Below, piece by piece: positions 10,842 to 50,885 of a stretch of 64,000 nt of DNA. The stretch's first letter is position 1. Every line of letters starts with the position of its first letter. This DNA comes from Minisyncoccota bacterium (GTDB taxonomy: Bacteria; Patescibacteriota; Minisyncoccia; Phycocordibacterales; UBA9973), in NCBI GenBank assembly GCA_031413715.1, contig JANOFO010000011.1:18903-82902 (forward strand), written 5' to 3'. The notes below the pieces were generated by a model. That model made no database searches. It worked only from the letters and a program-made list of their open reading frames with translations, and had not been told where the DNA came from. Made by a program: the position numbers and the translations under genes.

Positions 10842-11894
10842 TTATACTTCTATTTCTTTTATCTTCACATCTTTCTCACTATCATCAAGAGGATCATACG
10901 TAGCGTTATTGTCTGGGTCTTTATCGCTGTGACATCCTGGGTCTTGAGTATCTTTTAATTCATCTTCAACATCATTATTATCAACATCATCACTACACTC
11001 TGGATCATCTCCGCCTCCACCACCTAGAGGTTCAGAACAGGATGCAGTGGTACCACCACCAGAACCAACACAACTCCATGTCCATGGGCCAGATCCTGCA
11101 TTATTTGCAGATGATCCTGCATTACAATTAAAGTGTGTAGAAGCACAGATACCATTGACGACAGTAACGGCGCAGACACTTCCATTCCACCAACTGCCCG
11201 ATGCACATATTGCGGTTGCTGTTTTACTACTCAACACTGTTGCCCCATCTTTGAGATTAAATACGGTGGATGGATTAGCAACCCACACTTGAAGAGGGGT
11301 AGCTTTATTGGCAAGTGTGGAAAGGACGCTACTAGTGTTTGCATCTACAAGTTGCGGATTTGTTGCACCAGTTGTATTCCATGTCGCGCCTGTAACCGTA
11401 CAAGTACTTGCGCCGATTGATATCGTACACGTATTCGGCGATACAGTAAGTGAACCAGAAGAAGATGAACCTCCTTCATCAGTTACAACGATGTCTACTG
11501 CATCAAATGCAGAACCTCCCTGATTATCACTTGCACTAAAACGCACTGTATATGTTCCTGGGACCGTCATTCCTGTGATACTTGTTGTAGATGCATTCGG
11601 AGAGGATATAATGGGTGTTACGGGACCAGTCCTGAAATACCAAAGCTGACTCGCGATCGTGCCGTCTGGGTCCGTTGCAGTACCAGTAAGTGTGACAGAA
11701 CTCGTAGGCAGTGTTATCGCTTGGTCAGGACCGGCATTTACTATTGGAGGAAGATTAGGAACTTCAACAGTATACGGGATAGAATAATCGTATTGAGTCC
11801 AACCGGCAGATGTGAGTTTTGGAGAAATCAAGATCGCTAGTACGAAAACAAATCCTAAGGTAATATATTTTTTATTTTTTGAGATTTTTTTCAT
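10842..11894 (-). CDS. Secreted/surface protein with PKD/Ig-like repeat and Cys-rich, acidic C-terminus
   Basis: Signal peptide MKKISKNKKYITLGFVFVLAILISP; NAGPDQAITLPTSSVTLTGTATDPDG PKD-like motif; 14 Cys in the C-terminal third; poly-D/E tail. Confidence 0.7.
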   Translation of the reverse strand: MKKISKNKKYITLGFVFVLAILISPKLTSAGWTQYDYSIPYTVEVPNLPPIVNAGPDQAITLPTSSVTLTGTATDPDGTIASQLWYFRTGPVTPIISSPNASTTSITGMTVPGTYTVRFSASDNQGGSAFDAVDIVVTDEGGSSSSGSLTVSPNTCTISIGASTCTVTGATWNTTGATNPQLVDANTSSVLSTLANKATPLQVWVANPSTVFNLKDGATVLSSKTATAICASGSWWNGSVCAVTVVNGICASTHFNCNAGSSANNAGSGPWTWSCVGSGGGTTASCSEPLGGGGGDDPECSDDVDNNDVEDELKDTQDPGCHSDKDPDNNATYDPLDDSEKDVKIKEIEV

Positions 11895-11898
11895 ATAT

Positions 11899-14229
11899 TT
11901 AGTTACATTTTTTCAAACTATTTGTAGAACAATACATCCCACCTCCAATAGTACATGTACCCGGGAGAGTAGTCGGATTACCCGAACATGTAAGTGCACA
12001 AACTCCTGTGTCACCCCCAAGTACAGGCTGTCCGTACGCAGGATTTTGTATATCGTCGTAGACACAAGGCTGCGTCTCCCCACAAGCAGGGAGAGAACCT
12101 CCACATTGCTGTTTGTTGTGAACAAGATAATCGTCGGCATAGTATGTATGATCGCCATCGAGAATGAAGTTATACAGATCGGTATTTTCTTTTGCTTCAT
12201 AACTAGCATCGACGGACTCAAGTTTTACAACCCCTTCCGATGTGATAAGTGTGTCTCCAACTGCGAGTTCTGTAACTTCAATACCAATATTTTCTTTTTC
12301 AGTTTTCTTTGGATCGATAGACTTCCATCCATCCATCGTTTTGAATGGGTGCTCTGCAGTTACGAAGTGTTTGCCCCCATTGAATGAATAGAGTGCTCCT
12401 CCTTCTAGCTTTGGTCTATGAAATGCAAGAACCGTATTGTTGCTAGTCTCTCCTTTCAATACATCTCCAATTTTGATGTCTTGAATATTTTTCTTTGTTC
12501 CATTAGCAAGCGTCACAAGCGTGTCGGCGATAAAACAATGGGCATAGTATCCAGGATCACCGCCAGGTGGTGTATCAAGAATAACAATGTCATTTTCAAA
12601 GACGCCAGTTGAGAAATCGACGAGGTATGAACCAGGGGTAGAAGGGGCACCAGGGTTAACAAATGCGTCATATACAGTTAGAATTGTGTCTCCTCCTCCA
12701 ATAGTTTGATCTGGAATTAATGTAAGTGTTGAATTTCCTGTTGTAGTTGCTTTTAGGTTAACCAGATTAGAATAAGTTGCGTTTGATACCATTGATGCTG
12801 AGACAGTTATTGGAGTCCCTGGTAAATAATTTGAACTATCTGTAGTTACTGTAGATAGTAAATCCCCGGTAGCACCAGCTGGGTATGTGGTAGCACTTAC
12901 TTTGTGAGCTGGTAACGCTCCTCCTAGCACTGTGAGTATAAAGAATAATACCCCAAGATGGACAGAGTTACCTTTTTTCTTTTTCATCATATATATTGCA
13001 ATGATTATAAGTACAATAACGAGAATTAGCGTAGCACGTGAGTTAAGTGGTTTTGATCCAGAAGATTGAACGCTTTTAAATGCAAAGTCTTTCTGATCAA
13101 GCACAGTCCCTAGACTATCGGCAAGTGCAAGAGAGACTTGCGGGTTGCGACAGAGCCCAGTCACTAAAATAGGAACGTCGGTCACTGGCCGGCTAGGGTC
13201 TTTGGTGATAACCTGGTTGAAAGTTTCACCGCATGACATACCATTTCCATTACTCAAATGTGCAGAGAGGGAGATGACAGCCTTTTCTGGGGATATTGCA
13301 TGAACATCGGTTCTCAAGAACTGATCTCCGAATTTTGTCCATATGAGTGAAAGATGCGCGGTATCGCCTCTCTGATACAAATCTTTATCAAGAGAAAGAT
13401 TTTGGATTGTAGCGCTTGTTCCGCGGATAAAATAATGAAGATCAATCGGATTGGAATTAACTTGCTCACTTGTAAGCGCTACCTTTAGGTCATAGAGCTG
13501 AGGGATTGTTCCCTTTGGCAATAGTATTGAAAAATTTTCGCTCTTTGATGCGACAAATGAAATAGAGCTCGCGTCGCCTCCTGTAGATGGAGCAATGTCT
13601 CCATAAGTAGATCGATATCTTGTTTCAAACGATGGGGTAAGAGAGAGGGCATTATTTGTATGGTTAATTGTATTACATGTGAGGCGAAGGGTTTCATCTG
13701 GTGAAATATCTACACCTTGTAAAAGTCCATAATGTTTGTTGCTCTTTTCGCCTTCAACTTTCAAATAACATGAACTGGTAACTACTTCAAAACCTTTTAT
13801 CGTGGAGTTGAGTGTGACCTTACCTGTGAATGCGACACTGAACGGAAATCCATTCTTGTTATTACTTACCAAGAATAAATTATAGGTGCCATTTAATTCC
13901 TTAGGCGCGGTATAAGTGATTTCCTTGGGGATACTGCTATGTTCTTGCAGGGTAAGTGACTCATCATACGCTTTCTCATCAACGATAGCGTTCCCCGATA
14001 TAAGCTGGACTCCGTATTTGACCCCAGTCTGCTGTCCTTCACGATTTGTGAGATCAAACGAGATATCAAAAACGTTATCCTTCTGAGAAATAATTTTTGC
14101 ATGTTGAATATCTACTGTGGCAATAGGAGTACTTGGTGAGGTAGTACTAGCCGCAAAAGCATTCTGTGAGAAAAAGGCTGAGGAAAAAACGAAAGCGCTG
14201 AAAATTAAAAACGTAGAGATATTCTTCAT
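11899..14229 (-). CDS. Large secreted/membrane protein with C-terminal Hint (pretoxin-HINT / bacterial intein-like) domain and 71-aa Cys-rich tail
   Basis: N-terminal signal peptide; internal TM (aa 399-413) followed by a signal-peptide-like segment (MMKKKKGNSVHLGVLFFILTVLGGALPAHKVSA); Hint blocks CFIADTLVTLANG (aa 565), VTAEHP, and ...DGDHTYYADDYLVHN (aa 705); tail with 8 Cys. Confidence 0.75.
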   Translation of the reverse strand: MKNISTFLIFSAFVFSSAFFSQNAFAASTTSPSTPIATVDIQHAKIISQKDNVFDISFDLTNREGQQTGVKYGVQLISGNAIVDEKAYDESLTLQEHSSIPKEITYTAPKELNGTYNLFLVSNNKNGFPFSVAFTGKVTLNSTIKGFEVVTSSCYLKVEGEKSNKHYGLLQGVDISPDETLRLTCNTINHTNNALSLTPSFETRYRSTYGDIAPSTGGDASSISFVASKSENFSILLPKGTIPQLYDLKVALTSEQVNSNPIDLHYFIRGTSATIQNLSLDKDLYQRGDTAHLSLIWTKFGDQFLRTDVHAISPEKAVISLSAHLSNGNGMSCGETFNQVITKDPSRPVTDVPILVTGLCRNPQVSLALADSLGTVLDQKDFAFKSVQSSGSKPLNSRATLILVIVLIIIAIYMMKKKKGNSVHLGVLFFILTVLGGALPAHKVSATTYPAGATGDLLSTVTTDSSNYLPGTPITVSASMVSNATYSNLVNLKATTTGNSTLTLIPDQTIGGGDTILTVYDAFVNPGAPSTPGSYLVDFSTGVFENDIVILDTPPGGDPGYYAHCFIADTLVTLANGTKKNIQDIKIGDVLKGETSNNTVLAFHRPKLEGGALYSFNGGKHFVTAEHPFKTMDGWKSIDPKKTEKENIGIEVTELAVGDTLITSEGVVKLESVDASYEAKENTDLYNFILDGDHTYYADDYLVHNKQQCGGSLPACGETQPCVYDDIQNPAYGQPVLGGDTGVCALTCSGNPTTLPGTCTIGGGMYCSTNSLKKCN

Positions 14230-14365: not shown

Positions 14366-15097
14366 CTAATTACTGACACGGATAAACTCCTGTGTATGGA
14401 TAACCATAAGATAAGGAGGGTTTAACGCTGGTTTTTGCATATGCCTCTTAAATCCACTTTCGTTAATCCAGTCCATAATCCAGTCGTCTCCCGCAATCAA
14501 ATGTACGTTTGAGGTCCACTCATTGGCTAAGGAGTACTTAGCTCGGTATTCAAAACCAGTTCCATTGTATAAAGATACATACACAGAATCATTGGTCTTA
14601 AAACGTAAAGTGTCCTTGTTAAGGGGGGCCGGAAATACCTGTGTAGAATCAACAATCTGTGTTGTGTAACTCGACATTGTAAACCGGCCTGTTTGGCATA
14701 GCCCTGTTCTGGGCGGTGAAAAGGCATAAACTACGACAGATTTTTCAAGGTAACCCCCGGTACTGTTTTTTGCATAGATTTTAATCTCCAATTCTGGCTG
14801 TTGCAGGTTTTCGGTCTGGACTATCAGCACCCCATTTGAGAACGTATAGGGCCGATTAGACCAGATGGAATCAACATCCGCTACTATAGTAGCAGTAACA
14901 TTTCCGCTTCCTGCGAACCAAAAAGTTGGTGGCACAGTAACGGTAAAGTTTGGTGTTTTCACCACTGGTTTTGGGTCAGGCTCTCCTCCTCCAGGAGGCT
15001 TGGGTAATGATTTGTTGTCGGGTGTGCAGCTGTTGAAAGTCAACAGCGCAATAAAGACAAAAGCTGTAGCCAAAAGGCTGTTGAAATTCTTTTTCAT
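14366..15097 (-). CDS. Putative lipoprotein / secreted protein
   Basis: MKKNFNSLLATAFVFIALLTFNSC signal peptide with Cys at end of h-region; no recognizable domain. Confidence 0.6.
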   Translation of the reverse strand: MKKNFNSLLATAFVFIALLTFNSCTPDNKSLPKPPGGGEPDPKPVVKTPNFTVTVPPTFWFAGSGNVTATIVADVDSIWSNRPYTFSNGVLIVQTENLQQPELEIKIYAKNSTGGYLEKSVVVYAFSPPRTGLCQTGRFTMSSYTTQIVDSTQVFPAPLNKDTLRFKTNDSVYVSLYNGTGFEYRAKYSLANEWTSNVHLIAGDDWIMDWINESGFKRHMQKPALNPPYLMVIHTQEFIRVSN

Positions 15098-15385: not shown

Positions 15386-15901
15386 TTAATGATTCCTCAA
15401 TTTTCCATAAAGAAGTGTAAGTAAAATCTTTTCATCATCAACCAAAATTAAACCATTATCTCTTATCTTCTTAAATAGTTTGGTGTCTAATTTTCGACTC
15501 TGAAAGAAAAGATTCATGATAGTCCGCTCATCATCCTCAGCTGATATACGGTTTATATTTAACTTTCCGCATTTTTGACAATCATGAATAATCATAACCT
15601 CACCACCATCTTTCTTTAAAGAAATACCTAATGGCTTCATAGAAGCATGACATTCTGACTTACGATCTCCCGGACTGACATCAACATGAAGAGAATATAA
15701 ACAGTATGGGCAATGGTTACGATGCTTAGTAGAAGTTGAATCCGACGGAATCTCTCTTCTGCAATGTTTACAGCGGAAACTTTCTGCTCGTAGCTGTAAT
15801 ATCATCTTTTTACCCATCTTTGAAATTTTCTTTGGATCTTTTTTTATTAAGGACGAGTCGTCATCAAAAGTCTTTTTTTTACTGAATTTTTGATATCCCA
15901 T
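15386..15901 (-). CDS. RNHCP-domain zinc-ribbon protein
   Basis: Literal RNHCP motif in KHRNHCPYCLYSLHVD plus CKHCRRE and HDCQKCGK Cys pairs. Confidence 0.7.
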   Translation of the reverse strand: MGYQKFSKKKTFDDDSSLIKKDPKKISKMGKKMILQLRAESFRCKHCRREIPSDSTSTKHRNHCPYCLYSLHVDVSPGDRKSECHASMKPLGISLKKDGGEVMIIHDCQKCGKLNINRISAEDDERTIMNLFFQSRKLDTKLFKKIRDNGLILVDDEKILLTLLYGKLRNH

Positions 15902-15994
15902 GATCTTATATTTTGTTGTATTGTACTACAATTCTTGTATAAGTCAAATTGACATATGTTGAAAATTATTTTATAGTAAATAAAAATAATTAAC

Positions 15995-16849
15995 ATGAAA
16001 ATAGAAATACTTGGCAGTGGCGGTTCAATCGTAACTCCGCGCCCAGGGTGTTATTGCGAGTCTTGCGTTAAAGCACGGACGTATGGTGCACCTTTCGTCA
16101 GAACAGGACCTTCAGTTTTCATTCATGATTATTCAATCTTGATAGATACGCCAGAAGATATCAGTGTTCAGTTGAATCGTTCTAAAATAGATACCATTGA
16201 CCATTGTTTATATTCGCACTGGCATGGCGATCATGTTTTAGGAAGAAGGATCTGGTACACACTTAATTATGATTTTGTAAACAAGAATCCCGTTCACAGA
16301 AAAACTATTGTTCATTTAACAGAAACTGAAGAGATTGATTTTCGAAACCACCTTGGACATCTCGACCATTTCAAAAAACTTGAGAATGAAGAGCTTATTC
16401 AGCTTTCTATCGAAAAGAATAATAAGCCTTTCTTTATCGAAGATTTGAAAATACAGCCCTATCCTCTGGCAGACAAGAGTGTTTTTGCTTTCTTATTTAA
16501 AGAAGGAGGTAAACAGATAGGTATCGCTATGGATGATTTATACAGATGGAAGCCGTCTGTCGCTTTTAATAACTTAGATCTATTAATCTTGCCAATTGGA
16601 ATCTTTGATTCGCACCCTATGACTGGAAAGCAATTGATGGATCCTGAGCATCACCTTCTAAAAGGCGAACTTACATTTAAAAGCACCTTGGCTTTACTTA
16701 AAAAGTTAAATCCTAAGCGAGTTGTGTTCATGCACATAGAAGAACATGATCAGATCAGTTTTGAGTCTTTAGGGTGTATTGGGAAAAAATTCAGTTCTAA
16801 GAGATGCCAAATTCTTTGTTCTTATGACGGAATGACAATAACAATCTGA
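15995..16849 (+). CDS. MBL-fold metallo-hydrolase (PhnP/PqqB-like subgroup)
   Basis: N-terminal ILGSGGS...PGCYCESC Cys cluster and SHWHGDH metal-binding motif. Confidence 0.7.
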   Translation: MKIEILGSGGSIVTPRPGCYCESCVKARTYGAPFVRTGPSVFIHDYSILIDTPEDISVQLNRSKIDTIDHCLYSHWHGDHVLGRRIWYTLNYDFVNKNPVHRKTIVHLTETEEIDFRNHLGHLDHFKKLENEELIQLSIEKNNKPFFIEDLKIQPYPLADKSVFAFLFKEGGKQIGIAMDDLYRWKPSVAFNNLDLLILPIGIFDSHPMTGKQLMDPEHHLLKGELTFKSTLALLKKLNPKRVVFMHIEEHDQISFESLGCIGKKFSSKRCQILCSYDGMTITI

Positions 16850-16877
16850 GTATGAAATCTTAAACAGGAGGGACTAA

Positions 16878-17888
16878 ATGTCCCTTTTTTGCTATAATTT
16901 TAGAATGAAGAAACGAATATATCCTGAATTACCTGGTTATTTAGGTCCAATCATATCTATATTTCCACAAGAGGTAAAAACAATGAAGCGCTTCTCATCA
17001 GGGATTATAAATGAATCCTATTTGATAACATTCACTGATAAAAGCCAAAAAGTATTAAGAATATATGCTCTGGGAAGAAAACTGGCAGAAGCAGTTCGGG
17101 AGATAAAGATTATGGAGAAACTGCGCAAAAAAGGTATCCCTATTCCAGAAATTTATACTATAAAAAGCAAAAAATACTTATTCTTTACAGACAAGAACTC
17201 AAAAAAAAGAATTGCATTGGTTATGGAGTTTGTGCCTGGTTCTGAACTAAAGTCATCAGACCATATTCTGATCGCAAGCTGTGCAAGGACTCAAGCAAAG
17301 ATGCATACTTTGCTTTTAAAAAAACGACCCTCTTTAAAAGAAGGCATACAGAGCACTACAAAGATTAAGAGGTGGATGGACAAAGAAATTACCGCTGCAT
17401 TAAGCAATACCAATCTTGAAAAAGGGATCAGGAAAGAAATATCAGAACGATATCAAAATATCAGAAGAGAATGGAATAAAAATCAGGATGTCTTTCTTAA
17501 AATTCCTTTTGGAGTCGTACATTTTGACTACGACAGCAGTAACATATTAATAAAGGATAATACTATCAGGGGTATAATTGATTTTGATGATATCACTGAA
17601 GCACCACTTGCAGTCGATCTTGGATTCTCACTTTGGTGGTGGATTTTTTTCAATCTCAAGAAAAACAGCTCAGAAATTGCAAAGAGTTACATAAAATCTT
17701 ATTCGTATACAAGAAGATTAACTCAACAAGAGATAGATCTACTCCCTCTTATTATAAGAGTGAGAAATATGATTTTATTATGTCTTCTTTTTATCAACAA
17801 CTCACCAAAGAAGATCCAGAGAAATAAAATCAATCAAGCACTTAGATTGGACGAACTACTTATTAATAAGCCTGCATATCTAAAATAA
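16878..17888 (+). CDS. Phosphotransferase-fold kinase (APH / choline-ethanolamine kinase family)
   Basis: VVHFDYDSSNILIKDNTIRGIIDFDDI matches the H-x-D-x4-N catalytic loop and IDFxD Mg site of APH/ChoK-like kinases. Confidence 0.65.
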   Translation: MSLFCYNFRMKKRIYPELPGYLGPIISIFPQEVKTMKRFSSGIINESYLITFTDKSQKVLRIYALGRKLAEAVREIKIMEKLRKKGIPIPEIYTIKSKKYLFFTDKNSKKRIALVMEFVPGSELKSSDHILIASCARTQAKMHTLLLKKRPSLKEGIQSTTKIKRWMDKEITAALSNTNLEKGIRKEISERYQNIRREWNKNQDVFLKIPFGVVHFDYDSSNILIKDNTIRGIIDFDDITEAPLAVDLGFSLWWWIFFNLKKNSSEIAKSYIKSYSYTRRLTQQEIDLLPLIIRVRNMILLCLLFINNSPKKIQRNKINQALRLDELLINKPAYLK

Positions 17889-17889
17889 A

Positions 17890-19047
17890 ATGAAACAAAT
17901 AAAGTACATTCCTTTTCACAAACCGACAATACCGAAAGAAGTTATAAAATCAATAACGGACTCCTTGGATTCTGGTTGGATAACTACCGGGCCGAAAGTG
18001 AAGCAATTCGAAAATGAACTCTCGACAATAATAGGGAAAAAAGATATCGTTGCAACTTCTTCTTGCACTGCTGCACTCCATACGGCATATGCGATGCTTA
18101 ATCTCCATAAAGGAGATGAAGTTATAGTGCCCAGCTTTACTTTTTGCTCAACGATAAATATGCTCGTTAACCTTGGTGTGGCTGCCGTTTTTGCTGATAT
18201 CAATGAAAACTCCTACTGTATAGATCCTAAAGATATCGAACATCGTATAACAAAAAAGACAAAAGCGATTGTTGTTGTTCATTATGCTGGTATGCCGGCA
18301 GATATGTCTTACATCAATAAAATCGCAAAGAAGCATAAGCTTTTTGTTATAGAAGATGCGGCTCATGCATTTTCTACTATTTATAAAGGACGCCCTATTG
18401 GAGCAGGTAAAAATATTACATGCTTCAGTTTCTATGCTACAAAAAACTTTACCACTGCCGAAGGTGGAGCTCTCGTATGTCAAAACAAAAAACAAGAGAA
18501 TCAAGCTCGTTTATTTATAAATCATGGTATCTCAAAAAATGCCACCACAAGATATACCCAAGGAGGAACATACAAGTATGATGTAATCTTCCCAGGGTAT
18601 AAATATAATCTGTCTGACATTCATGCATCAATTGGACTCTGTCAGCTTCCTTATAAAGGAATATTCCAACAAAAGAGATTAAGAGTTGTGAAAAAATATA
18701 GAAAGGGTCTGGGAATAAACAAAGATTTGATTCTTCCGATTGATCCTCCGTATAAAGATTCAGTGCATGCATGGCACTTGTTTACCATAGAGGTTCTTTC
18801 GACTTCAAAATGTACAAGGGATGAATTATTCTCTTTCCTTATGAGTAACAAGGTGGGTGCCAGTGTGCATTATATTCCTAACCATTTACAGTCATTTTAT
18901 CGGAATCAAAAAGTAGTCTTACCGGTTACCGAGAAAATTGCCGCCCGTATTATTTCCTTACCTTTATATGAATCGCTGAAGGATGAGGATATAAATCGAA
19001 TTATTAAATTAGTAAATTATGCTACGAAATATGGAATCAAGCAATAA
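17890..19047 (+). CDS. DegT/DnrJ/EryC1/StrS-family PLP-dependent sugar aminotransferase
   Basis: 385 aa; YIPFHKPTIPKEVIKSITDSLDSGWITTGPKVKQFE N-terminus; SFYATKNFTTAEGGALV PLP-lysine region. Confidence 0.85.
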   Translation: MKQIKYIPFHKPTIPKEVIKSITDSLDSGWITTGPKVKQFENELSTIIGKKDIVATSSCTAALHTAYAMLNLHKGDEVIVPSFTFCSTINMLVNLGVAAVFADINENSYCIDPKDIEHRITKKTKAIVVVHYAGMPADMSYINKIAKKHKLFVIEDAAHAFSTIYKGRPIGAGKNITCFSFYATKNFTTAEGGALVCQNKKQENQARLFINHGISKNATTRYTQGGTYKYDVIFPGYKYNLSDIHASIGLCQLPYKGIFQQKRLRVVKKYRKGLGINKDLILPIDPPYKDSVHAWHLFTIEVLSTSKCTRDELFSFLMSNKVGASVHYIPNHLQSFYRNQKVVLPVTEKIAARIISLPLYESLKDEDINRIIKLVNYATKYGIKQ

Positions 19048-19948
19048 GAAGATTGTAATCACAGGGGTTTCAGGATTTATTGGCAAGAATCTAGCAAAGC
19101 ATCTCAAACTTAGAGGTTATGAGATAATAGGGATAGACATTGCAGGTACGGGCGAGAGCTGTAGTACATTTTATCTAGGTAGTTTTAATGATGAGAGTAT
19201 CACTAGTATCGCCTTAAAAGAGGCTCATGCCGTATTTCATTTAGGAGCTATTGTAGGTGTTGATAGATGTCAGGATAATCCAGATTTAGTAAGACAAGTA
19301 AATTTTACACAAACGGTATTATTTTTAGACAGATGCGTAGAGCTAGGGATAAAAAAACTGATATTTTCTTCCTCATCTGAAGTATATGGTAACTCTAAAG
19401 ATCTCCCGTACAGAGAAGATACCGCTGTTTCTCCTATTTCTTTATATGCAAAATGCAAAAGAGATACTGAAATACACCTAGAAGTCTTGTCAAAATCTAG
19501 AGGTATGCAAGTATGTATTCCACGCTTCTTTAACGTATATGGACCTGGCCAAAGGTCCGACTTTGTAGTAACAAAATTCATCAATCTGGTAAAGACTAAT
19601 AAAAATATTGAAATATACGGGAATGGCCTTCAGACAAGAAGTCATACATTCATTGACGATGTGGTCAATGCTTTAGAAAAAATGATTACTTACAATGAAA
19701 CCCCATATGAAATTTTCAATGTAGGAAGTACTTTCGAATATACAATGAATGATGTAGCGAAAATAATCTTAGAATTTTTCCCCGATTCAAAATCAGAGGT
19801 TTTACATGTGGAGTATGGTTCAAATGGAACACGTGATATCTCTCTTGAAATTGACAGGAGAGTTCCCTCCATTCAAAAGACAGAAAATAAATTTTCTTTT
19901 AAAGCAAAAATTGATTTAAAAGAAGGAATTCAAAAGATGATTAGATAA
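19031..19948 (+). CDS. NAD-dependent epimerase/dehydratase (SDR family, UDP-sugar 4-epimerase-like)
   Basis: KIVITGVSGFIGKNL Rossmann motif; YAKCK catalytic YxxxK. Confidence 0.8.
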   Translation: MESSNKKIVITGVSGFIGKNLAKHLKLRGYEIIGIDIAGTGESCSTFYLGSFNDESITSIALKEAHAVFHLGAIVGVDRCQDNPDLVRQVNFTQTVLFLDRCVELGIKKLIFSSSSEVYGNSKDLPYREDTAVSPISLYAKCKRDTEIHLEVLSKSRGMQVCIPRFFNVYGPGQRSDFVVTKFINLVKTNKNIEIYGNGLQTRSHTFIDDVVNALEKMITYNETPYEIFNVGSTFEYTMNDVAKIILEFFPDSKSEVLHVEYGSNGTRDISLEIDRRVPSIQKTENKFSFKAKIDLKEGIQKMIR

Positions 19949-19960
19949 AAAAGTAAATAT

Positions 19961-22045
19961 ATGGAGAATGACTACAGATATATACCCATAAAAAGAGGTT
20001 TAATTACTCAACTTTATCCTTGGAACTTCTGGTACATTGATTTTTTGACACTTTTTCCTTTTCTATATATTAATAAATCTAAAAAAGACAAAATCCTCCA
20101 AGATTTAAAATATTTTTATCACACTGACAATATCTTTTTTCTTGATTCTGGTAAAAGTGCTCTCGTTACCTCAATGAAAGCTCTAGGTATAAAGGAAGGA
20201 AATGAAGTATACATCCAATCTTTTGTGTGTACTGATGTTGTGGATGCAATAATAATGACAGGAGCTCAACCTGTATTGATAGATTGTACTGATAACTTAT
20301 TGATTAATGCTAGTGATTTCGAGAAAAAAATTACTAGCAAAGGAAAATGTCTAGTGATTACAAATACTTATGGCTACGTTGAAAAAAGCGAGATATACCA
20401 AATAGCACGTAAGTATAATTTAAAAGTTATAGATGATTGTGCACAATTAGCAGAAATTAAGAAAGATTTCTCGACACAGAAAAAAGCTGATTTCTCAGTA
20501 TACAGCGTCGGCACTCAAAAACTATTCGCTACTACAGGAGGAGGAATTATAACTACAAATCAAAAAGAGCTTGCCGAGAGTGTCAATTTTACGATGCCGA
20601 ATCAGATTATTTCATATACTTCGCTTGTACGTAAATTGATATTGCGCTTAAGCTATTCATTTAAATTCTTATTACTACGGATCCAGGATTATATCAAGAT
20701 AAAAGTAATACATATCGCAAAAGAAAAAACGCCTTACGATCATCAAGATCCAGAATCTATACGGCCAAAAAAAATGAATATCCGAACGATATACTCCTTA
20801 TACTTGAAAAGTGTACGAAGTAATTCTCACCGCGACAAAACCAGACAAAACATTAAAACTCTAAATGATTATCTTAAGAAATTTGAGTGGATAAAACTAC
20901 CTCAAAGGGAGCATAATGATACTGTCCTATATTACACGATAACTGTTGCTAATGAAATCAGATACAAGCTTGGCGAATATCTAAGTAAGTACGGATTCCA
21001 ATCAACATGGAATTACATGCCGGTAAATTGGTATATGGCATATAAGAAGTATAGAGGTGAAACACCTAATTCTTTTTATCTATCGGGGAAAGTGCTTTCC
21101 CTTCCATTTAGAGATTTGTCAGACTTAAATATAAAAGAGATGATTTCTGTAATAGATAAATTTGAAAAGACAATCCTAAATTCAAAAGAGATAAAAGAAT
21201 TAACCATTAAGGACTGGTACTCAAGAACAGTAGGTTTATCAGGATATACATTTTTTTCTTCTATGGAATGGGTTTCTCTCACTGCAGAAATATTCAATCT
21301 TACCAATCATTTCCTTGTTATATCAGATAGTGGGGCTCTTATTTACACTATCGTCCAAGTTGATAAAAACGGTTTAGGTTATTCAACTTTTATTGGATAT
21401 GGAGGATTAATTACCGACAATATTATTTCTGATACTTTGACCAAGCGGATTTATCGCCTGATTGAGGATTATTTGCGGTTAAAGATAATTAGAATAAAGG
21501 ACTCTCCATTTATAGAAAAAACATCATGTGATGCAAATACAAAAAATACATCTGCAATAAAAATAGATACGGGATACGTACCTAATAAGAATATTAGGTA
21601 CTTCCTAAAAAAAGTAAATTATAATGTAGTCAGTATAAGAAAACTGGAGAGTAATGAGATTGATTCAATGTATGATTTATATCTAGATACCTCACTGCGC
21701 GTAAAAAGTGCTTACACAACACCAAAAGAGCTTTTTAAGTCTATGTTTACAATGAAAGACGTTTACATCCTTGGAGGATTTGATGAGAAGCAGAAACTTC
21801 ATGCCGCAAGCATTTTTATGTACGATAATCAGACGATGTATTATTGGTGGAATATGTCAGATGATATTGCCAAGAAAGAATACTATAATTATGCACTCAT
21901 ATATCATGCTATCGAACTAGCTGTTCAACAAAAACTAAATTGGTTTGACATGGCAACTTCACATTCTGAAACTTTAAAAGTATTTAAAAAATCTTGGGGA
22001 GCTATTGATGTACCGTTTCTTAGTCTTGAGGCCGAGGAGAAATAA
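19961..22045 (+). CDS. Fusion protein: DegT-like aminotransferase-fold N-domain plus FemAB/GNAT-like acyltransferase-like C-domain
   Basis: N-terminal 230 aa resemble DegT (SVYSVGTQKLFATTGGGIITT with conserved Lys); C-terminal ~250 aa (…YYWWNMSDD…YNYALIYHAIELAVQQKLNWFDMATS…) resemble FemAB/BioF2-like GNAT fold; middle ~170 aa unassigned. Confidence 0.5.
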   Translation: MENDYRYIPIKRGLITQLYPWNFWYIDFLTLFPFLYINKSKKDKILQDLKYFYHTDNIFFLDSGKSALVTSMKALGIKEGNEVYIQSFVCTDVVDAIIMTGAQPVLIDCTDNLLINASDFEKKITSKGKCLVITNTYGYVEKSEIYQIARKYNLKVIDDCAQLAEIKKDFSTQKKADFSVYSVGTQKLFATTGGGIITTNQKELAESVNFTMPNQIISYTSLVRKLILRLSYSFKFLLLRIQDYIKIKVIHIAKEKTPYDHQDPESIRPKKMNIRTIYSLYLKSVRSNSHRDKTRQNIKTLNDYLKKFEWIKLPQREHNDTVLYYTITVANEIRYKLGEYLSKYGFQSTWNYMPVNWYMAYKKYRGETPNSFYLSGKVLSLPFRDLSDLNIKEMISVIDKFEKTILNSKEIKELTIKDWYSRTVGLSGYTFFSSMEWVSLTAEIFNLTNHFLVISDSGALIYTIVQVDKNGLGYSTFIGYGGLITDNIISDTLTKRIYRLIEDYLRLKIIRIKDSPFIEKTSCDANTKNTSAIKIDTGYVPNKNIRYFLKKVNYNVVSIRKLESNEIDSMYDLYLDTSLRVKSAYTTPKELFKSMFTMKDVYILGGFDEKQKLHAASIFMYDNQTMYYWWNMSDDIAKKEYYNYALIYHAIELAVQQKLNWFDMATSHSETLKVFKKSWGAIDVPFLSLEAEEK

Positions 22046-22946
22046 TATAATTTTTATTGAGCCAATCTACAGTTTTATTAAAGTTTATACGCTTACTATA
22101 ATCCTCTTCTCTTATTTCGAGAGTCAAGAGTCTATCTTTATCATCGTTTTTCATGATATGAAGAAATTCTACGAGTTCTTCTTCAAGAAGGAGCCCTTGA
22201 TTAGGAACAACACCTTCATAACAATCAATATACGTATGAGGAAAAGTTAATACCTTAAAAGAACTCAGATGTAAGTGCTGAATCAAATTCTTAATTTGAT
22301 TCATATCGTTAAAATTGACATTTTTAGTTGTAGAAATATAAGGATGTATGTTACTGACAGCTTTTATAAATTCACAAGTAAAACCCCAGTGACAAAGATC
22401 TAATGTTACAGCAATATTCTTTAAATCCTTAATAAAAGTAAAGTCTTCTGGAAAGATAAATATGGAATCAAAATCGGAACCATCATTGCCGATGATGGGC
22501 ATATTTTCAAGGCAGATTTTAACATTCAAATTTTTATCACTTATATAGTTGTCTAAATCTTTTATTAAAGAGATATATTTATTCCTCATGTCAGAAATCT
22601 GAGCCTTCAAATGAAGATTGAGTGGAATAATCGCATTCGAATGAAGAACAAGTATAGGAATACCAGCCTCCGAACAAATGTTTATCGCCCTGAGCAATCC
22701 ATTGTAGTTGTCTTTATTTTCAAGATAACTTGCATTGTCTGTTGGAAAATGCAGAGAATTAACTATCCCTTTTTTGATAGTTTGAAGTCCCACTATTTCT
22801 TGAGTAAGTTTCTTAAGGGACTCATCTGTAAGGAGTTGGTTGATATCAAATACATTAGCCTCTATTTTAAAATCATTCAGGAGTATATATTTTAAAGGAA
22901 TTTGCTCAAGTGAACCTGTTTTATATGGGATAGAAATAGTAAGCAT
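22020..22946 (-). CDS. Xylose-isomerase-like TIM-barrel sugar phosphate isomerase/epimerase family protein
   Basis: 308 aa; KICLENMP and LVLHSN motifs characteristic of AP-endonuclease-2/IolE-like TIM barrels. Confidence 0.55.
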   Translation of the reverse strand: MLTISIPYKTGSLEQIPLKYILLNDFKIEANVFDINQLLTDESLKKLTQEIVGLQTIKKGIVNSLHFPTDNASYLENKDNYNGLLRAINICSEAGIPILVLHSNAIIPLNLHLKAQISDMRNKYISLIKDLDNYISDKNLNVKICLENMPIIGNDGSDFDSIFIFPEDFTFIKDLKNIAVTLDLCHWGFTCEFIKAVSNIHPYISTTKNVNFNDMNQIKNLIQHLHLSSFKVLTFPHTYIDCYEGVVPNQGLLLEEELVEFLHIMKNDDKDRLLTLEIREEDYSKRINFNKTVDWLNKNYIISPRPQD

Positions 22947-22947
22947 C

Positions 22948-23631
22948 TTAAGTTATTTTTCTAAAACAATAAAAAGCTTCGCGCGCAGAAGTATTATTTT
23001 TTGCTCCCCAAAGAAGAGCATTATATCGTATGGCTTCAATAGAGCGAGGATGAGGAAAATCTCTGACCTCAGACACATATGCGCTCATTGCCTTAAGTTT
23101 AGTTTCAAGATGATGACTAATGTCAATAAATACATTCGGAATAAAGAACCTTTGCGGAACAGGTCCAGACATTTCAGTCGAAGATAGTGTTTCGAATAGA
23201 TATATTTCCTTAACAAAAGGAGCTTCGATCGTTCGGGTGGCAGTAATCACCGCCTCGAAGGTTAATCGATGATCAATATTTAAATCACCAAAATGATGTG
23301 TGTACACTACCTCTGGGGTATTTAGTTTTATATATTCACTTATATTTTTTATAATATCCAGTAACGGAATAGTGTCAAATCTATTATCAGGTAGCGCTAA
23401 ATACTTATAATCTTTTATACCGATAATAGAAAGCGCTTTTGCAGTTTCAGTGGTGACTAGAGCCTCCATCTCATCAGTAAGTTTAGAATACTCTTTTTGT
23501 TGAGAACTCTTACCATCTCCCAGGATTAAGACCGACACAAAATCTCCGTTTGCCACATGTCTTGCCAAAGTTCCACCTACACCTATAATTTCATCATCTG
23601 GATGAGCTACGATAGCCATAATCTTTCTCAT
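22948..23631 (-). CDS. PIG-L/LmbE-family N-acetylglucosaminyl deacetylase
   Basis: MRKIMAIVAHPDDEIIGVGGTLARH with the AHPDDE zinc motif; start placed at internal ATG 23629-23631. Confidence 0.8.
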   Translation of the reverse strand: MRKIMAIVAHPDDEIIGVGGTLARHVANGDFVSVLILGDGKSSQQKEYSKLTDEMEALVTTETAKALSIIGIKDYKYLALPDNRFDTIPLLDIIKNISEYIKLNTPEVVYTHHFGDLNIDHRLTFEAVITATRTIEAPFVKEIYLFETLSSTEMSGPVPQRFFIPNVFIDISHHLETKLKAMSAYVSEVRDFPHPRSIEAIRYNALLWGAKNNTSAREAFYCFRKIT

Positions 23632-23758
23632 ATGGAGGATGATATCATCTTTTAACAAAACGAGGTAGTCAGTAAAAGTAGCTCTTATAGACCAGTAAGA
23701 TGAATGAAAATTCAATCATTTATAAAGATAACTACGCAAAATTTAATTTTGATATCGT

Positions 23759-24157
23759 TTATATAGTTAACACTTTGTCTCTTATTGTTAAAGGGAGTAG
23801 ATTAATATTTTTAATGTTATCTTTTTTTGTAAGAAAAATGGAGTAGCCAAAACTTTCTTTTGTTCCTTCCATAAACTTCTTATCCTCACCACCCCCAAGT
23901 CTTCCAGATAACAAAGTACACGTATAGAAGAATTCCTTTATATTATTAACATAATCATAAAATTCAAATAAAAGCTTGTCTACAGATACTTCTATCCCCA
24001 ATTCTTCTTGAAGTTCCCGAGCACAAGCTTCTTCACTGGTCTCCCCAAGCTCAATAGAACCCCCGGGGAAAACATAATAAACTTGGTTATCCTTTTCGCG
24101 TTTAATAAGTACTATTTGATTATCTATAAAAAGAATCGCCCGTGATTTATTTTTCAT
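23759..24157 (-). CDS. NUDIX hydrolase
   Basis: GGSIELGETSEEACARELQEELGIEV Nudix box. Confidence 0.8.
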   Translation of the reverse strand: MKNKSRAILFIDNQIVLIKREKDNQVYYVFPGGSIELGETSEEACARELQEELGIEVSVDKLLFEFYDYVNNIKEFFYTCTLLSGRLGGGEDKKFMEGTKESFGYSIFLTKKDNIKNINLLPLTIRDKVLTI

Positions 24158-25670: not shown

Positions 25671-26216
25671 ATGAATCTATGGCACGACGTTTCAATTGGT
25701 AAAAATGTTCCGAATGAATTCAATTGTATAGTTGAAATCTCAAAGGGATCACACAATAAATACGAGATAGATAAAGAGACTGGTATGATTGCTCTTGATC
25801 GCGCAAATTATAATTCTGCTCCCTATCCTTTTGACTATGCGTTTGTTCCACAAACTCTCTGGGAAGACGGTGACGCGCTTGATGTAGTTATTCTTTCTAC
25901 GTTTCCACTTAACATCGGAATACTTGTAGCTGTTCGACCTGTAGCAATAATGGATATGAATGATTCTGGAGATTCTGATGCAAAGATAATTGCAGTTCCA
26001 ATTAACGATAAGCGCTTTGAGGATATCCAAGATATAACTGATCTCAATAAACACATGCTAAAGGAATACGCACATTTCTTTGAAACGTATAAAATACTCA
26101 AGGGTAAAACTCCTGAACAATATCCTGTAACTGTTTCAGGATATAAAGGAAAGAAAGAAGCAATGGAAGCTATTGCAAAATCCCAAGAACTTTATAAAGA
26201 AAAGTTCAGTAAGTAA
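25671..26216 (+). CDS. ppa: Inorganic pyrophosphatase
   Basis: 181 aa; family I PPase motifs (EISKGSHNKYEIDKETG, DGDALDVV). Confidence 0.9.
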   Translation: MNLWHDVSIGKNVPNEFNCIVEISKGSHNKYEIDKETGMIALDRANYNSAPYPFDYAFVPQTLWEDGDALDVVILSTFPLNIGILVAVRPVAIMDMNDSGDSDAKIIAVPINDKRFEDIQDITDLNKHMLKEYAHFFETYKILKGKTPEQYPVTVSGYKGKKEAMEAIAKSQELYKEKFSK

Positions 26217-26217
26217 T

Positions 26218-26802
26218 ATGCGTAAGATGATTCAAAATGGCGAACCTCATATAATCTCCGAGGGTAAGCTTGGAGCTATCGTTGGATTCCCAATGCTCGT
26301 TGACTCCGGTAATGGTCATATAGAAAAAACATTTGAAAGATTTGTGAGACCACCAGGCACTAGAATTATCGCGATTAGAGATAAAAAAATATTCCTTCAG
26401 AAAGAACATCGTTTAGAAACAAAAAATGAATTCGATTGGAGGTTGCCAGGAGGTAAAGTTGTAGATAGTTTTATAGAATATAAAAATTATCTCGGCAAGG
26501 AAATGCCTGAAAGTATGATCATAGAAGCAGGAAGACGAGAACTCCGAGAAGAAGCGAAACTTGACTCAAATTCAATAAAAGTTCTAAAGAAATCTTCTTG
26601 TGGCGCATCGGTTGAATGGGATCTTTATTATCTGATCGCTGAAAATATTACAGAACACGTGAATGACCATAACGAAGGAGAGGAAATCATAGATGGAAAA
26701 TGGTTCTCTTATGACAAAATAATAAAAATGTGTTTATCTGGGGAAATAGATGAAGATAGAACAGTAGCAACATTATATCAATATATAGAATCAAATAAGT
26801 AA
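26218..26802 (+). CDS. NUDIX hydrolase
   Basis: LPGGKVVDS...EAGRRELREEAKL Nudix box; start at ATG 26218 right after the ppa stop. Confidence 0.7.
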   Translation: MRKMIQNGEPHIISEGKLGAIVGFPMLVDSGNGHIEKTFERFVRPPGTRIIAIRDKKIFLQKEHRLETKNEFDWRLPGGKVVDSFIEYKNYLGKEMPESMIIEAGRRELREEAKLDSNSIKVLKKSSCGASVEWDLYYLIAENITEHVNDHNEGEEIIDGKWFSYDKIIKMCLSGEIDEDRTVATLYQYIESNK

Positions 26803-28588: not shown

Positions 28589-29629
28589 TTAAATACCGTT
28601 ATAATTCCTGCAAGAAAAAAGATACTGCTCGATGAATATATTTTTTATACTGAAAATTGAATTAGTCTCGTAAAATGTGAGCATCGCTTCTTTGTAAAGG
28701 GCTTCATTTACATTCCTATAGGAAAGTGGAGCCAAATTATGAGCGAGCAATACTGCATTTGTCACAAGACGAGCAGTTCTTTTGTTGCCATCTTCGAATG
28801 GTTGTATATAGCTGAGCCCTATCAGCATGAGTAGGGCTTTTTCGTATCTATTCGGCATTGCGTTCGTGGTTTTACAAAGTTTTTCAACCGCTTCTGTGAT
28901 CTGATGCACGTTATCAAGGGGGCGATAGTTAGAGCCGGTAATCCCCACCAAGCTCTTTCGCAACCCGTATGAAACATTCAAATCTTTAACCAAAATTTTG
29001 TGTACCTCTTCTATAAAAGCACTATTGATCTTTTCTGCTTTTTGTATATTGTCCAACACAAAATTAAAAGCATCTTTATGGTTGAGTATCATTGTAGCCT
29101 CTTCCATTGTATTGGTTTTCGATGCTATGCCGTCTTTCAATAATTTTTCAGTATTGAGCAACGTATACGTATTGCCTTCGATTTGTGAAGATTTCCAAGA
29201 AAGTTCAATAATAAAGCGCTCCAATTCTTTTTTGTGTATTATATCTGTTGCCGATTGCTTATTTTTTACATACTGTTTTGTCGATTCTTCTAAAGTTTCA
29301 GTTTCTTCATTTGTAAGTAGTGCAAATTTCGCCCCGTTGAACAGATCAAAATTGTAGCCCACTTCTCCTGACCTTTTATCTTGCTCAATACTGCAGTAGT
29401 CCTTCGCATCAAGAGGATTATGAATCTTGCCCAAAAGTGTGATCTCGTAGCCTAGGGAGCGGCCCTTGCCCACAGCAGATATAAACCCTGATTTTACCAG
29501 ATTTTGCAGATCTCTTTTTACCGTAATCAAAGATACTTCTTCCTTTAATTCTTTTCTAAGCAAGGAAGAAGGCATGCTTCTATTTTTACGGATAACTCCC
29601 AATAGCTGTTTTTGCCTGTTATTCATCAT
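28589..29629 (-). CDS. Fic-family protein with N-terminal wHTH domain
   Basis: HPFEDGNKRTARL Fic motif (GNG->GNK variant); N-terminal ~60 aa HTH-like. Confidence 0.8.
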   Translation of the reverse strand: MMNNRQKQLLGVIRKNRSMPSSLLRKELKEEVSLITVKRDLQNLVKSGFISAVGKGRSLGYEITLLGKIHNPLDAKDYCSIEQDKRSGEVGYNFDLFNGAKFALLTNEETETLEESTKQYVKNKQSATDIIHKKELERFIIELSWKSSQIEGNTYTLLNTEKLLKDGIASKTNTMEEATMILNHKDAFNFVLDNIQKAEKINSAFIEEVHKILVKDLNVSYGLRKSLVGITGSNYRPLDNVHQITEAVEKLCKTTNAMPNRYEKALLMLIGLSYIQPFEDGNKRTARLVTNAVLLAHNLAPLSYRNVNEALYKEAMLTFYETNSIFSIKNIFIEQYLFSCRNYNGI

Positions 29630-38327: not shown

Positions 38328-38771
38328 GTGAAAAAGTGCACTAGATGTAAAAAAGAAAAGCCTGTAGAGGAATTCAATTTTAAAATCAAGAAAACAGGAT
38401 TACGGCAATTACAATGCCGAGAATGTACTCGCTTATTAATTAAAAACCATTATAATACAAACAAGCAGTATTATTTATTAAAAGCAAGAAAGCGTAATAA
38501 AATTTTGCGCGATGAAATTAACCTTTATATATATGAGTATTTATCAAGAAATCCTTGTGTAGATTGCGGGGAATCAGATGTTGTCGTTCTAGAGTTTGAT
38601 CACATGGGAATAGTCCCAAAATTAAATACAGTCTCCTTCTTAGCAAGAGTACATCGTCCGATAAATGAGATACAAGCAGAAATGGATAAATGCGAAGTTA
38701 GATGTGCTAACTGTCATAAAAGAAAAACCGCAAGAGATTTTAAATGGTTTAAAAATAATATGCGCCCGTAG
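38328..38771 (+). CDS. HNH endonuclease with N-terminal zinc ribbon; 3' end overlaps tRNA-Arg
   Basis: CTRCKK...CRECTR ribbon; CVDCGESDVVVLEFDH...CANCH HNH core; stop codon TAG at 38769-38771 lies inside the tRNA acceptor stem. Confidence 0.7.
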   Translation: MKKCTRCKKEKPVEEFNFKIKKTGLRQLQCRECTRLLIKNHYNTNKQYYLLKARKRNKILRDEINLYIYEYLSRNPCVDCGESDVVVLEFDHMGIVPKLNTVSFLARVHRPINEIQAEMDKCEVRCANCHKRKTARDFKWFKNNMRP

Positions 38772-38834
38772 CTCAACGGATAGAGCATTTGTCTTCGGAA
38801 CAAAAGGTTGGGGGTTCGATTCCCTCCGGGCGCA
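38762..38834 (+). tRNA. tRNA-Arg (anticodon UCG)
   Basis: Acceptor GCGCCCG/CGGGCGC, D-arm GCTCAACGGATAGAGC, anticodon stem TTTGT/ACAAA with loop CTTCGGA, T-arm GGGGG-TTCGATT-CCCTC. Confidence 0.85.
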
Positions 38835-38846
38835 CCCAAGTTTCCT

Positions 38847-45279: not shown

Positions 45280-45286
45280 ACATTAA

Positions 45287-50882: not shown

Positions 50883-50885
50883 ATT

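Follow-up and report, generated by a model that had tools for sequence, protein, structure and literature searches.

What is a tightly packed set of sugar-modifying genes doing in a bacterium of the candidate phyla radiation (CPR), a group usually thought to be without specialised metabolism, and does the product of those genes stay on the cell surface or leave the cell? The question was raised by one locus in a 64,000-nucleotide stretch of contig JANOFO010000011.1 (Minisyncoccota bacterium, assembly GCA_031413715.1), the whole of which was analysed and is hereafter called the window. Our answer, which is tentative and to which we give somewhat less than an even chance of being right, is that the locus is a self-contained, horizontally mobile cassette that would build an N-aminoacylated diamino sugar from UDP-N-acetylhexosamine (UDP-HexNAc) and release it as a small molecule. 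We infer every chemical step of this proposal from homology, conserved synteny, gene fusions and predicted fold.

All eight open reading frames (ORFs) that a first-pass annotation had listed as an amino-sugar tailoring cluster were recovered by ORF calling at the coordinates it gave, and in a Pfam scan their families exceeded the gathering score with the exception of the FemAB-like region, which was sub-threshold. The tight packing that it described was likewise confirmed, neighbouring genes being spaced by −29 to +43 nucleotides (nt), so that they abut or overlap. The features are as follows, with protein lengths in amino acids (aa).

15386–15901, minus strand: RNHCP-domain zinc-ribbon protein, 171 aa (Pfam RNHCP 109.7 bits); divergent from the operon, a conserved companion
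15902–15994, no strand: divergent intergenic region, 93 nt, with back-to-back promoter-like sites
15995–16849, plus strand: metallo-beta-lactamase (MBL)-fold metallohydrolase, 284 aa (Pfam Lactamase_B_2 45.9 bits)
16878–17888, plus strand: APH-fold kinase, 336 aa (Pfam APH, PF01636, 95.5 bits against a gathering score of 23.2)
17890–19047, plus strand: DegT1, 385 aa, putative ArnB-like nucleotide-sugar 4-aminotransferase (Pfam DegT 386 bits)
19019–19948, plus strand: extended short-chain dehydrogenase/reductase (SDR), 309 aa, putative UDP-(HexNAc)uronate C4-oxidase/decarboxylase (Pfam Epimerase 160 bits / GDP_Man_Dehyd)
19961–22045, plus strand: DegT2-FemABX-like fusion ORF, 694 aa (N-terminal DegT; C-terminal sub-threshold FemAB_like/Acetyltransf_6)
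19961–21169, plus strand: DegT2 domain of the fusion (Pfam DegT 98.7 bits, residues 47-209 only)
21170–22045, plus strand: FemABX-like domain of the fusion, putative aminoacyl-tRNA-dependent transferase (TIGR03019 pepcterm_femAB, E 3e-10; AlphaFold2 model)
22020–22946, minus strand: metal-dependent TIM barrel, 308 aa, EndoIV/CbiR-like (Pfam AP_endonuc_2 40.7 bits)
22948–23631 (ORF to 23715), minus strand: PIG-L/LmbE-family N-deacetylase, 227 aa (Pfam PIG-L 94.1 bits against a gathering score of 28.2)
23759–24157, minus strand: NUDIX hydrolase (ORF; outside the conserved unit)

The two promoter-like sites in the intergenic region, both of them consensus matches only, are TTGACA-17-TATAGT on the plus strand (15949-15977, 11/12) and TTGACT-16-TACAAT on the minus strand (15947-15920, 10/12). 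For the PIG-L gene the likeliest start codon is the ATG at 23631, which gives the 227 aa seen in its orthologs, rather than at the TTG at 23715.

Relatives of the locus were gathered by homolog neighbourhood look-ups, a GTDB scan and a metagenome scan, and were mapped by tblastn and ORF calling (loci are numbered with the prefix L). The same gene order recurred in approximately 16 independent loci at 25-78% amino-acid identity, carried by Nomurabacteria, Staskawiczbacteria, Parcubacteria, Saccharibacteria and one non-CPR contig of 68% GC (L037), so that the arrangement is not a product of chance. Every version contained DegT1, the SDR, DegT2, the FemAB-like protein, the TIM barrel and one deacylase. 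The APH kinase was found in about eight lineages, usually with the MBL hydrolase, and a nucleoside diphosphate (NDP)-sugar 6-dehydrogenase was clustered in four (L017/L036, L026, L035/L040 and L037). Kinase and dehydrogenase occurred together in none of the approximately 16 versions compared, and the kinase-bearing L016/L025 retain a 244-aa dehydrogenase remnant; the mutual exclusion of kinase/MBL and dehydrogenase could reflect an alternative entry route, an alternative protection chemistry or lineage history. The MBL gene was present in the window, L002-5, L024, L025 and L031, and in neither L018/L030 nor any dehydrogenase-type locus; it is thus an accessory confined to kinase-type clusters. 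Its product carries an HWHGDH motif and gave weak NCBIfam matches to PhnP and other MBL families, with the PDB entry 6b9v and PhnP aligning to the N-terminal region only.

The comparison also redrew the extent given by the first-pass annotation: its NUDIX gene was conserved beside the cluster in no relative, and the RNHCP gene, which lies just outside its range, adjoins the cluster in 11 of approximately 13 assessable lineages, at either end and in divergent or co-operonic orientation (in L017 its stop overlaps the dehydrogenase start). That such a cluster would be unusual was well judged, as the kinase and FemAB-like families have about 10 members each (12 and 8 clusters, respectively) among 5.8 billion clustered proteins. 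Literature searches on CPR biosynthetic gene clusters and on Saccharibacteria DegT returned nothing on this cluster.

The cassette adjoins EF-Tu in the window and in L002 and lies elsewhere in the other lineages, and serine recombinases or resolvases stand at its edge in L016, L017 and L026. Given these differing genomic locations, the extreme rarity of the cluster and the edge recombinases, we regard it as a self-sufficient mobile accessory cassette. In L010 (3103-11223) it abuts a defence island with type I restriction-modification (HsdR, HsdS), a ThsB-TIR protein and a PemK toxin. The GC content of the cluster (0.32-0.35, against 0.42-0.44 in the immediate flanks) is a weak sign of transfer, other parts of the window being equally AT-rich.

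Which chemistry the core encodes is best approached through DegT1, the SDR and the clustered dehydrogenase. Among NCBIfam families, DegT1 scored highest against ArnB (350 bits, equivalog cutoff 631) and second against PseC (320 bits); in the PDB its top three matches were ArnB enzymes at 273-280 bits, the best non-ArnB enzyme reaching 203. By these scores it is nearest to ArnB by a wide margin, and the aminotransferase subfamily that the first-pass annotation proposed to check is accordingly ArnB-like, though under the ArnB equivalog cutoff. PDB matches of the SDR were 104-114 bits for 4-epimerases, 97 for UXS1 and about 52 for ArnA. Its SSSE(V/I)Y and YxxxK motifs are invariant in all orthologs, in kinase-type and dehydrogenase-type clusters alike; we take Ser-Glu at this motif position to be a UXS/ArnA signature, RmlB-type 4,6-dehydratases having an Asp-Glu pair and GalE Ala or Thr there. 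The clustered dehydrogenases scored 311, 252 and 224 bits against UDP-ManNAc/UDP-GlcNAc 6-dehydrogenases and at most 177 against Ugd, and a UDP-HexNAc type fits both the N-deacetylase in the pathway and the glmS gene beside L037.

These are classic nucleotide-sugar enzymes, and as such they also suit the surface-glycoconjugate alternative, a serious rival that we nevertheless consider somewhat unlikely: the cluster would make a UDP-activated N-aminoacyl amino sugar that transferases encoded elsewhere add to peptidoglycan, a teichoic-acid-like polymer, a lipid or an S-layer protein, tuning the charge of the envelope. Such tuning has parallels in 4-amino-4-deoxy-L-arabinose (Ara4N) on lipid A, in D-alanylation and in lysyl-phosphatidylglycerol. 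The same NDP-sugar dehydrogenase, by pointing to nucleotide-sugar chemistry, speaks against a classical aminoglycoside or aminocyclitol cluster with an APH self-resistance kinase, a reading that we hold to be very improbable.

DegT2 is very divergent, its PDB matches to sugar aminotransferases spanning residues 45-210 only. Its Schiff-base lysine and its aspartate for pyridoxal phosphate (PLP) are invariant in 11 of 11 orthologs; retention of the lysine separates it from ColD/E1-type dehydratases, and it is therefore not one of these. The best PDB match, glutamine:scyllo-inositol transaminase, would be expected of an aminocyclitol pathway, as would the presence of two DegT-family enzymes. DegT2 orthologs share an aromatic/hydrophobic insertion at approximately residues 215-245 (R-x-K-Y-Y-F-T-F-F-like) and a hydrophobic N-terminus; DegT1 has neither feature, and the insertion may serve in membrane association or in binding a partner.

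Separate genes with an ATGA overlap encode DegT2 (395-436 aa) and the FemAB-like protein (283-297 aa) in most relatives, and in the window the two are joined in frame as a protein of 694 aa. The DegT-FemAB fusion of the first-pass annotation is thus real in the window without being general. A second fusion, a 670-aa ORF in Saccharibacteria L018, aligns end to end with the window protein and has a different linker, which indicates that the fusion arose independently twice. This recurrence, together with the translational coupling elsewhere, suggests that DegT2 and the FemABX-like protein act together. We considered an assembly artefact and rejected it: the 694-aa protein is the same in NCBI and Logan, the junction is in frame, and the L018 fusion is independent. 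A contig identical to that of the window is present in Logan (SRR20217197). Two loci are irregular at this point. In the Saccharibacteria-like L030 (10865-11714) the FemAB-like gene lies in two overlapping ORFs of 124 and 200 aa, which may represent a frameshift or a pseudogene, the related L018 having the fusion intact. In L008 (5260-7203) the FemAB-like gene is separated from the TIM barrel by an insertion of a seryl-tRNA synthetase gene and a 196-aa ORF, a single case that is intriguing because the predicted donor of the FemAB-like protein is an aminoacyl-tRNA.

Curated sequence scores for the FemABX-like domain were below cutoff (FemAB_like 20.1 bits against 27; TIGR03019 39.7 against 260, E 3e-10), and a PDB sequence search with the FemAB-like profile gave nothing meaningful. 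The AlphaFold2 (AF2) model (pLDDT 77.6) had as its top PDB matches in Foldseek Sbb17 and Sba18, entered there as aminoacyl-tRNA-dependent peptide synthases with bound streptothrisamine (E 9e-12 at TM-score 0.67 for the top match, overall approximately 1e-11 and 0.65-0.68, about 285 aa, probability 1.00), followed by FemX and FemA (probability 1.00), MprF-type aminoacyl-phosphatidylglycerol synthases and tandem GNATs; the TM-score range over Sbb17/Sba18, FemX and FemA was 0.62-0.68, and the tandem-GNAT acyl-CoA enzymes ranked as more distant. The model thus has the tandem GNAT-like FemX fold, and the domain probably uses aminoacyl-tRNA as its donor. A literature search for Sba18/Sbb17 found nothing relevant; a review describes Orf11 as using Gly-tRNA to aminoacylate the amino sugar in an antibiotic of streptothricin type (PMC12945691). 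The proposal of an amino-sugar tailoring cluster with an aminoacyl-transfer step is supported by these results. They also lend something to the surface-glycoconjugate alternative, in that the FemABX fold includes cell-wall enzymes and MprF-type lipid aminoacylases and that the best curated sequence family of the transferase is the exopolysaccharide-associated PEP-CTERM FemAB.

The first-pass annotation had called the TIM barrel an IolE/UlaE-like sugar isomerase. Across eight orthologs, the sole curated NCBIfam families matched at E ≤ 0.1 were nfo (4/8) and CbiR (3/8), at scores far below their cutoffs (nfo 26 bits against 130; CbiR 17 against 105), and at that threshold no curated isomerase, epimerase or dehydratase family matched any of the eight, so the isomerase label was dropped. 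A PDB sequence search with the TIM-barrel profile gave nothing meaningful. Residues H66, H102, E147, D183, H186, H224 and E277 are invariant. We assign the barrel weakly as a phosphodiesterase-like enzyme of EndoIV/CbiR type; it may instead be a sugar isomerase, epimerase or eliminase.

A deacylase is encoded in every locus, mostly PIG-L, with an M20 enzyme of ArgE/DapE type in L017 and L037, and the two are interchangeable in this role. PIG-L carries a VAHPDDE motif, stays below the BshB and MshB equivalog cutoffs and, in the PDB, resembles diacetylchitobiose deacetylase, LmbE and BshB only weakly. A PIG-L enzyme would also fit an aminocyclitol cluster (compare the 2'-N-acetylparomamine deacetylases), as would an APH-fold kinase as such.

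The kinase of the cassette, however, reaches no APH resistance family. It exceeds the gathering score for the APH fold, and its HxDxxxxN and DFDD motifs are invariant in six divergent orthologs. Its top curated family was type II homoserine kinase, far below cutoff (NCBIfam PRK05231, 87 bits against 271; thrB_alt, 70 against 256), and its best PDB match was 2ppq, also a type II homoserine kinase, with the anomeric sugar kinase NahK a weak match only. Scores against resistance families were 24.9 bits for APH(3') (cutoff 205) and 22.6 for APH(2'')-Ig (cutoff 620), and Pfam and NCBIfam scans gave no match to a choline-kinase family. The kinase clade has approximately 12 members, all within the cassette save one outlier at 24% identity; a distant homolog, P0140, lies in an unrelated and uninformative context (GroES/GroEL, VapBC). 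The kinase therefore belongs to an orphan APH-fold clade that is not LicA, APH(3') or homoserine kinase. Two suggestions of the first-pass annotation, an APH(3')-type resistance kinase and a LicA-type enzyme of phosphocholine decoration, do not survive these scores; its further thought, a homoserine kinase with no sugar link, is contradicted by the 87 bits against a cutoff of 271 and by a context that is always a sugar cluster. In the Nomurabacteria-type L005 (1988-2383) the kinase is cut to an 89-aa ORF comprising the C-terminal third only, with the other cluster genes intact; it may be dispensable there, or the truncation may be an assembly error.

Whether the product is released or displayed turns chiefly on what surrounds the cassette. 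Flanks of up to 10 kb per locus were inspected, with ORFs annotated in part. In the approximately 16 lineages, neither the cluster nor the annotated flanks yielded a glycosyltransferase, flippase, polymerase, initiating phosphotransferase, nucleotidyltransferase or cyclitol synthase. Beside L018 there is an EamA transporter; L035 is accompanied by an MFS transporter, two GNATs, an M28 peptidase and a WbqC-like gene, and L037 by a GNAT, a BpsA_C-like gene and glmS. As far as the annotated flanks extend, the orthologous clusters are not seated in O-antigen or teichoic-acid loci, a setting that the first-pass annotation had named as favouring its surface-glycan scenario, and this weakens that scenario and leaves its small-molecule scenario in modified form. 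Its aminocyclitol variant fails on the same survey, no 2-deoxy-scyllo-inosose synthase, inositol-phosphate synthase or dehydrogenase, or glycosyltransferase being present in any locus.

For the surface-glycoconjugate alternative the survey is awkward on further counts: a cassette that moves among contexts, flanked by recombinases, would need a matching transferase in each recipient, and an ever-present phosphodiesterase-like TIM barrel, a kinase, exporters and GNATs are unexpected in a donor-sugar pathway. In its favour, L035 carries the WbqC-like gene, of a family typical of O-antigen clusters. A small secreted molecule becomes the likelier product because in the annotated flanks the cassette is never beside enzymes that attach sugar to the cell surface. 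The consistent absence of transferases, the mobility, a phosphodiesterase-like enzyme retained everywhere, modifying and export genes that vary between loci, and a fold like that of Sba18 together favour a released small molecule over a surface glycan, a preference that we hold at a little under even probability.

The flanking genes also bear on a catabolic explanation, in which the cassette would salvage, degrade or detoxify host amino sugars or an exogenous aminoglycoside-like toxin. The deacylases (PIG-L, M20, M28), the reversible aminotransferases, the kinase, the phosphoesterases and the transporters could all serve such a role, the kinase has weak matches to APH-fold anomeric sugar kinases such as NahK, and CPR bacteria rely on host metabolites. 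Nevertheless, two of the enzymes, the tRNA-dependent aminoacyl transferase and the NDP-sugar 6-dehydrogenase, are anabolic, glmS adjoins L037, and neither a glycoside hydrolase nor a system for sugar uptake accompanies the cassette consistently, which makes this explanation distinctly unlikely.

The RNHCP companion raises another possibility. The Cys/His pattern of the domain is conserved, and an exhaustive HMMER search placed the family at approximately 1,000 representatives. Of ten long RNHCP proteins scanned, seven were RsgA GTPase-RNHCP fusions with RNHCP C-terminal to RsgA, and the others carried pentapeptide repeats or a UvrC or cytidylate-kinase-like domain. RNHCP is apparently co-operonic with a TetR gene and rsgA on a Vibrio plasmid, and on a Streptomyces plasmid two RNHCP genes stand among an APH fragment and FBP-domain genes, which we take to encode FusB-like EF-G-binding proteins. 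RsgA is a 30S-stimulated GTPase that checks maturation of the decoding centre (PMC9032327); a literature search for RNHCP returned nothing on the domain. Given the RsgA fusions, the Vibrio operon and the other fusion partners, RNHCP is most simply read as a nucleic-acid-binding or 30S-binding zinc ribbon, and these associations suggest a ribosome-related role independent of the cassette. One could go further and suppose that the amino sugar made by the pathway is delivered by RNHCP to rRNA, to tRNA or to the 30S subunit, so that the cassette modifies RNA or the ribosome. Near-constant adjacency, the co-operonic arrangement in L017 and fusion to RsgA, with UvrC and cytidylate-kinase-like domains as rarer partners, all fit this idea. 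It is nonetheless highly improbable: the cassette has no transferase able to link a sugar to RNA, RNHCP is absent from L035/L040 and L037 despite their intact core, and such a modification has no known precedent.

Returning to a released N-aminoacylated diamino sugar, the route to it would run as follows. UDP-HexNAc would be oxidised to a uronic acid by the NDP-sugar 6-dehydrogenase, which is clustered in four lineages and not in the window. The SDR would then oxidise C4, probably decarboxylating the sugar as ArnA-C/UXS do, and so produce a UDP-4-keto sugar, to which DegT1 would add a 4-amine by the logic of ArnB. The FemABX-like protein would use aminoacyl-tRNA to place an amino acid on a sugar amine, the reaction that Sba18/Orf11 carry out with streptothrisamine; its partner DegT2 may catalyse a second amination or may modify the aminoacyl group. 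PIG-L, or M20 in other lineages, would strip the N-acetyl group, and the TIM barrel, with the MBL enzyme where present, would cleave a phospho(di)ester, plausibly freeing the sugar from UDP, an analogue of which is the release of nucleotide by PseG in pseudaminic acid synthesis. The APH-fold kinase may phosphorylate the product for protection of the producer, or may provide an alternative entry that replaces the dehydrogenase. RNHCP would be a companion that binds nucleic acid or the 30S subunit, acting as an immunity factor or a regulator.

Several observations count against this scheme. The substrate identities rest on nearest-family similarity below every equivalog cutoff, and the SDR is roughly equidistant from 4-epimerases and UDP-GlcA decarboxylases in the PDB. 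Because the window and most kinase-type loci have no dehydrogenase, the uronic-acid route is unproven for the window, and no obvious origin is seen for the second keto group that DegT2 would need as a second aminotransferase. The release step depends on a TIM barrel whose match to phosphodiesterase families is a weak assignment (E 4e-6 to 2e-4), whose single-sequence AF2 model was unusable (pLDDT 42) and whose profile showed no significant hhalign match to E. coli Nfo, though the metal-ligand motifs aligned, a comparison on which we did not rely. Glycosyltransferases may be encoded elsewhere in the carrier genomes beyond the flanks surveyed, and the WbqC-like gene of L035 is an O-antigen-type family, the sole one seen. 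RNHCP, finally, is missing beside L035/L040 and L037.

In the order proposed, the steps would yield a 4-N-aminoacyl-2,4-diamino-2,4-dideoxypentose, which we take to be the scaffold of prumycin, a compound for which we know of no reported gene cluster. Prumycin inhibits protein synthesis (PMC8772736, PMC10458361). The most far-reaching form of our proposal, which we consider improbable as a whole, is that CPR bacteria exchange an aminoacyl-diaminosugar antibiotic cassette directed at translation, in which RNHCP would be a 30S-binding immunity factor, the kinase and GNATs would protect the producer, and DegT-FemABX would constitute a new partnership of PLP and tRNA chemistry.

Should the product indeed be a diffusible aminoacyl amino sugar, the pathway would be among very few for specialised metabolites in CPR/Patescibacteria and would bear on how an epibiont interacts with its host or competitors. 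tRNA-dependent aminoacylation of amino sugars, known so far from Streptomyces pathways of streptothricin type, would likewise extend to a new phylum and to a fused architecture. If the surface-glycan alternative is true, the cluster would represent an uncharacterised cationic modification of the envelope in organisms whose cell surface mediates a parasitic lifestyle. The uncharacterised RNHCP domain gains two associations, with the 30S GTPase RsgA and with the cassette pathway.

In its general gene content the window resembles a CPR/Patescibacteria genome: a ribosomal-protein operon and EF-Tu take up the DNA to approximately 10.7 kb, and it also encodes NusA, trigger factor, inorganic pyrophosphatase, RNase Y, ClpP and four tRNAs. 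The interval from EF-Tu to the cluster encodes a PKD-domain protein of 350 aa and a protein of 776 aa that matches a Hint/Vint domain weakly (10842-14229, minus strand), followed by a 243-aa ORF without a family match (14366-15097); different genes occupy this slot in the related genome L002, so it is evidently a variable region. A second NUDIX hydrolase (26173-26802, plus strand) follows the pyrophosphatase and is unrelated to the one beside the cluster, and a Fic/DOC-domain protein (28589-29629, minus strand) follows ClpP. Three TrmB-family regulators fall within 13 kb (34133-34882, 35661-36467 and 46478-47224), one of them adjoining an NMT1/THI5-like ABC transporter operon (43758-46279). 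The ORF for a CCA-adding enzyme/poly(A) polymerase (38808-40418) has a TTG start as called that overlaps tRNA-Arg(TCG) (38761-38838), and its true start must for that reason be further downstream. At 49106-52442 on the minus strand, a tyrosine recombinase/integrase, a carbon-nitrogen hydrolase and an aromatic amino acid (histidine/phenylalanine) ammonia-lyase stand in a row; this may be another acquired island, and the catabolic set is unusual for a reduced genome.

Set beside known systems, the cassette most resembles parts of several. In the Arn system (PmrHFIJKLM), whose ArnB is nearest to DegT1 by sequence and by solved structure, there are parallels in the extended SDR that follows DegT1, in its Ser-Ser-Glu-Val-Tyr motif, which is like that of the ArnA-C/UXS decarboxylases, and in N-acylation followed later by N-deacylation, as with the ArnA formyltransferase and ArnD. 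The differences are that the nucleotide-sugar 6-dehydrogenase clustered in four cassette lineages is of UDP-HexNAc type and not Ugd; that neither the window cluster nor the related loci have a formyltransferase domain, an ArnC/ArnT glycosyltransferase or an ArnE/F flippase; and that the acyl donor is probably aminoacyl-tRNA, with DegT2, the TIM barrel, the kinase and RNHCP as additional components. In pseudaminic acid synthesis, PseB, PseC, PseH and PseG supply an SDR, a DegT aminotransferase, an N-acyltransferase and hydrolytic sugar release, which is the logic proposed for the cassette. The cassette, however, is without a PseI/NeuB condensing enzyme or a CMP-activating enzyme, falls below the PseC, PseB and LegB cutoffs, and would effect release by a TIM-barrel or MBL phosphoesterase rather than a GT-B hydrolase.

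Among single components, the kinase shares its fold and its catalytic HxDxxxxN and DFD motifs with ThrB_alt, APH, NahK, MtnK and LicA and scores far below all of their curated cutoffs. The TIM barrel passes the Pfam superfamily threshold shared with EndoIV and CbiR, and its His/His/Glu/Asp/His/His/Glu pattern resembles the metal ligands of EndoIV. We know of no description of a FemABX-like transferase coupled or fused to a DegT-family PLP enzyme. For the FemABX-like domain itself, the streptothricin-type enzymes Sba18, Sbb17 and Orf11 (BD-12) are the best structural match, over about 285 aa and without the FemA coiled-coil, at a sequence identity to Sba18/Sbb17 of only 12-13%; they aminoacylate an amino-sugar amine from aminoacyl-tRNA (PMC12945691), and the streptolidine, non-ribosomal peptide synthetase, carbamoyltransferase and glycosyltransferase parts of the streptothricin pathway are absent from the cassette. 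Nucleotide-sugar tailoring with tRNA-dependent aminoacylation is a known kind of chemistry, and it is the architecture of the cassette and the phylum of its hosts that are unusual.

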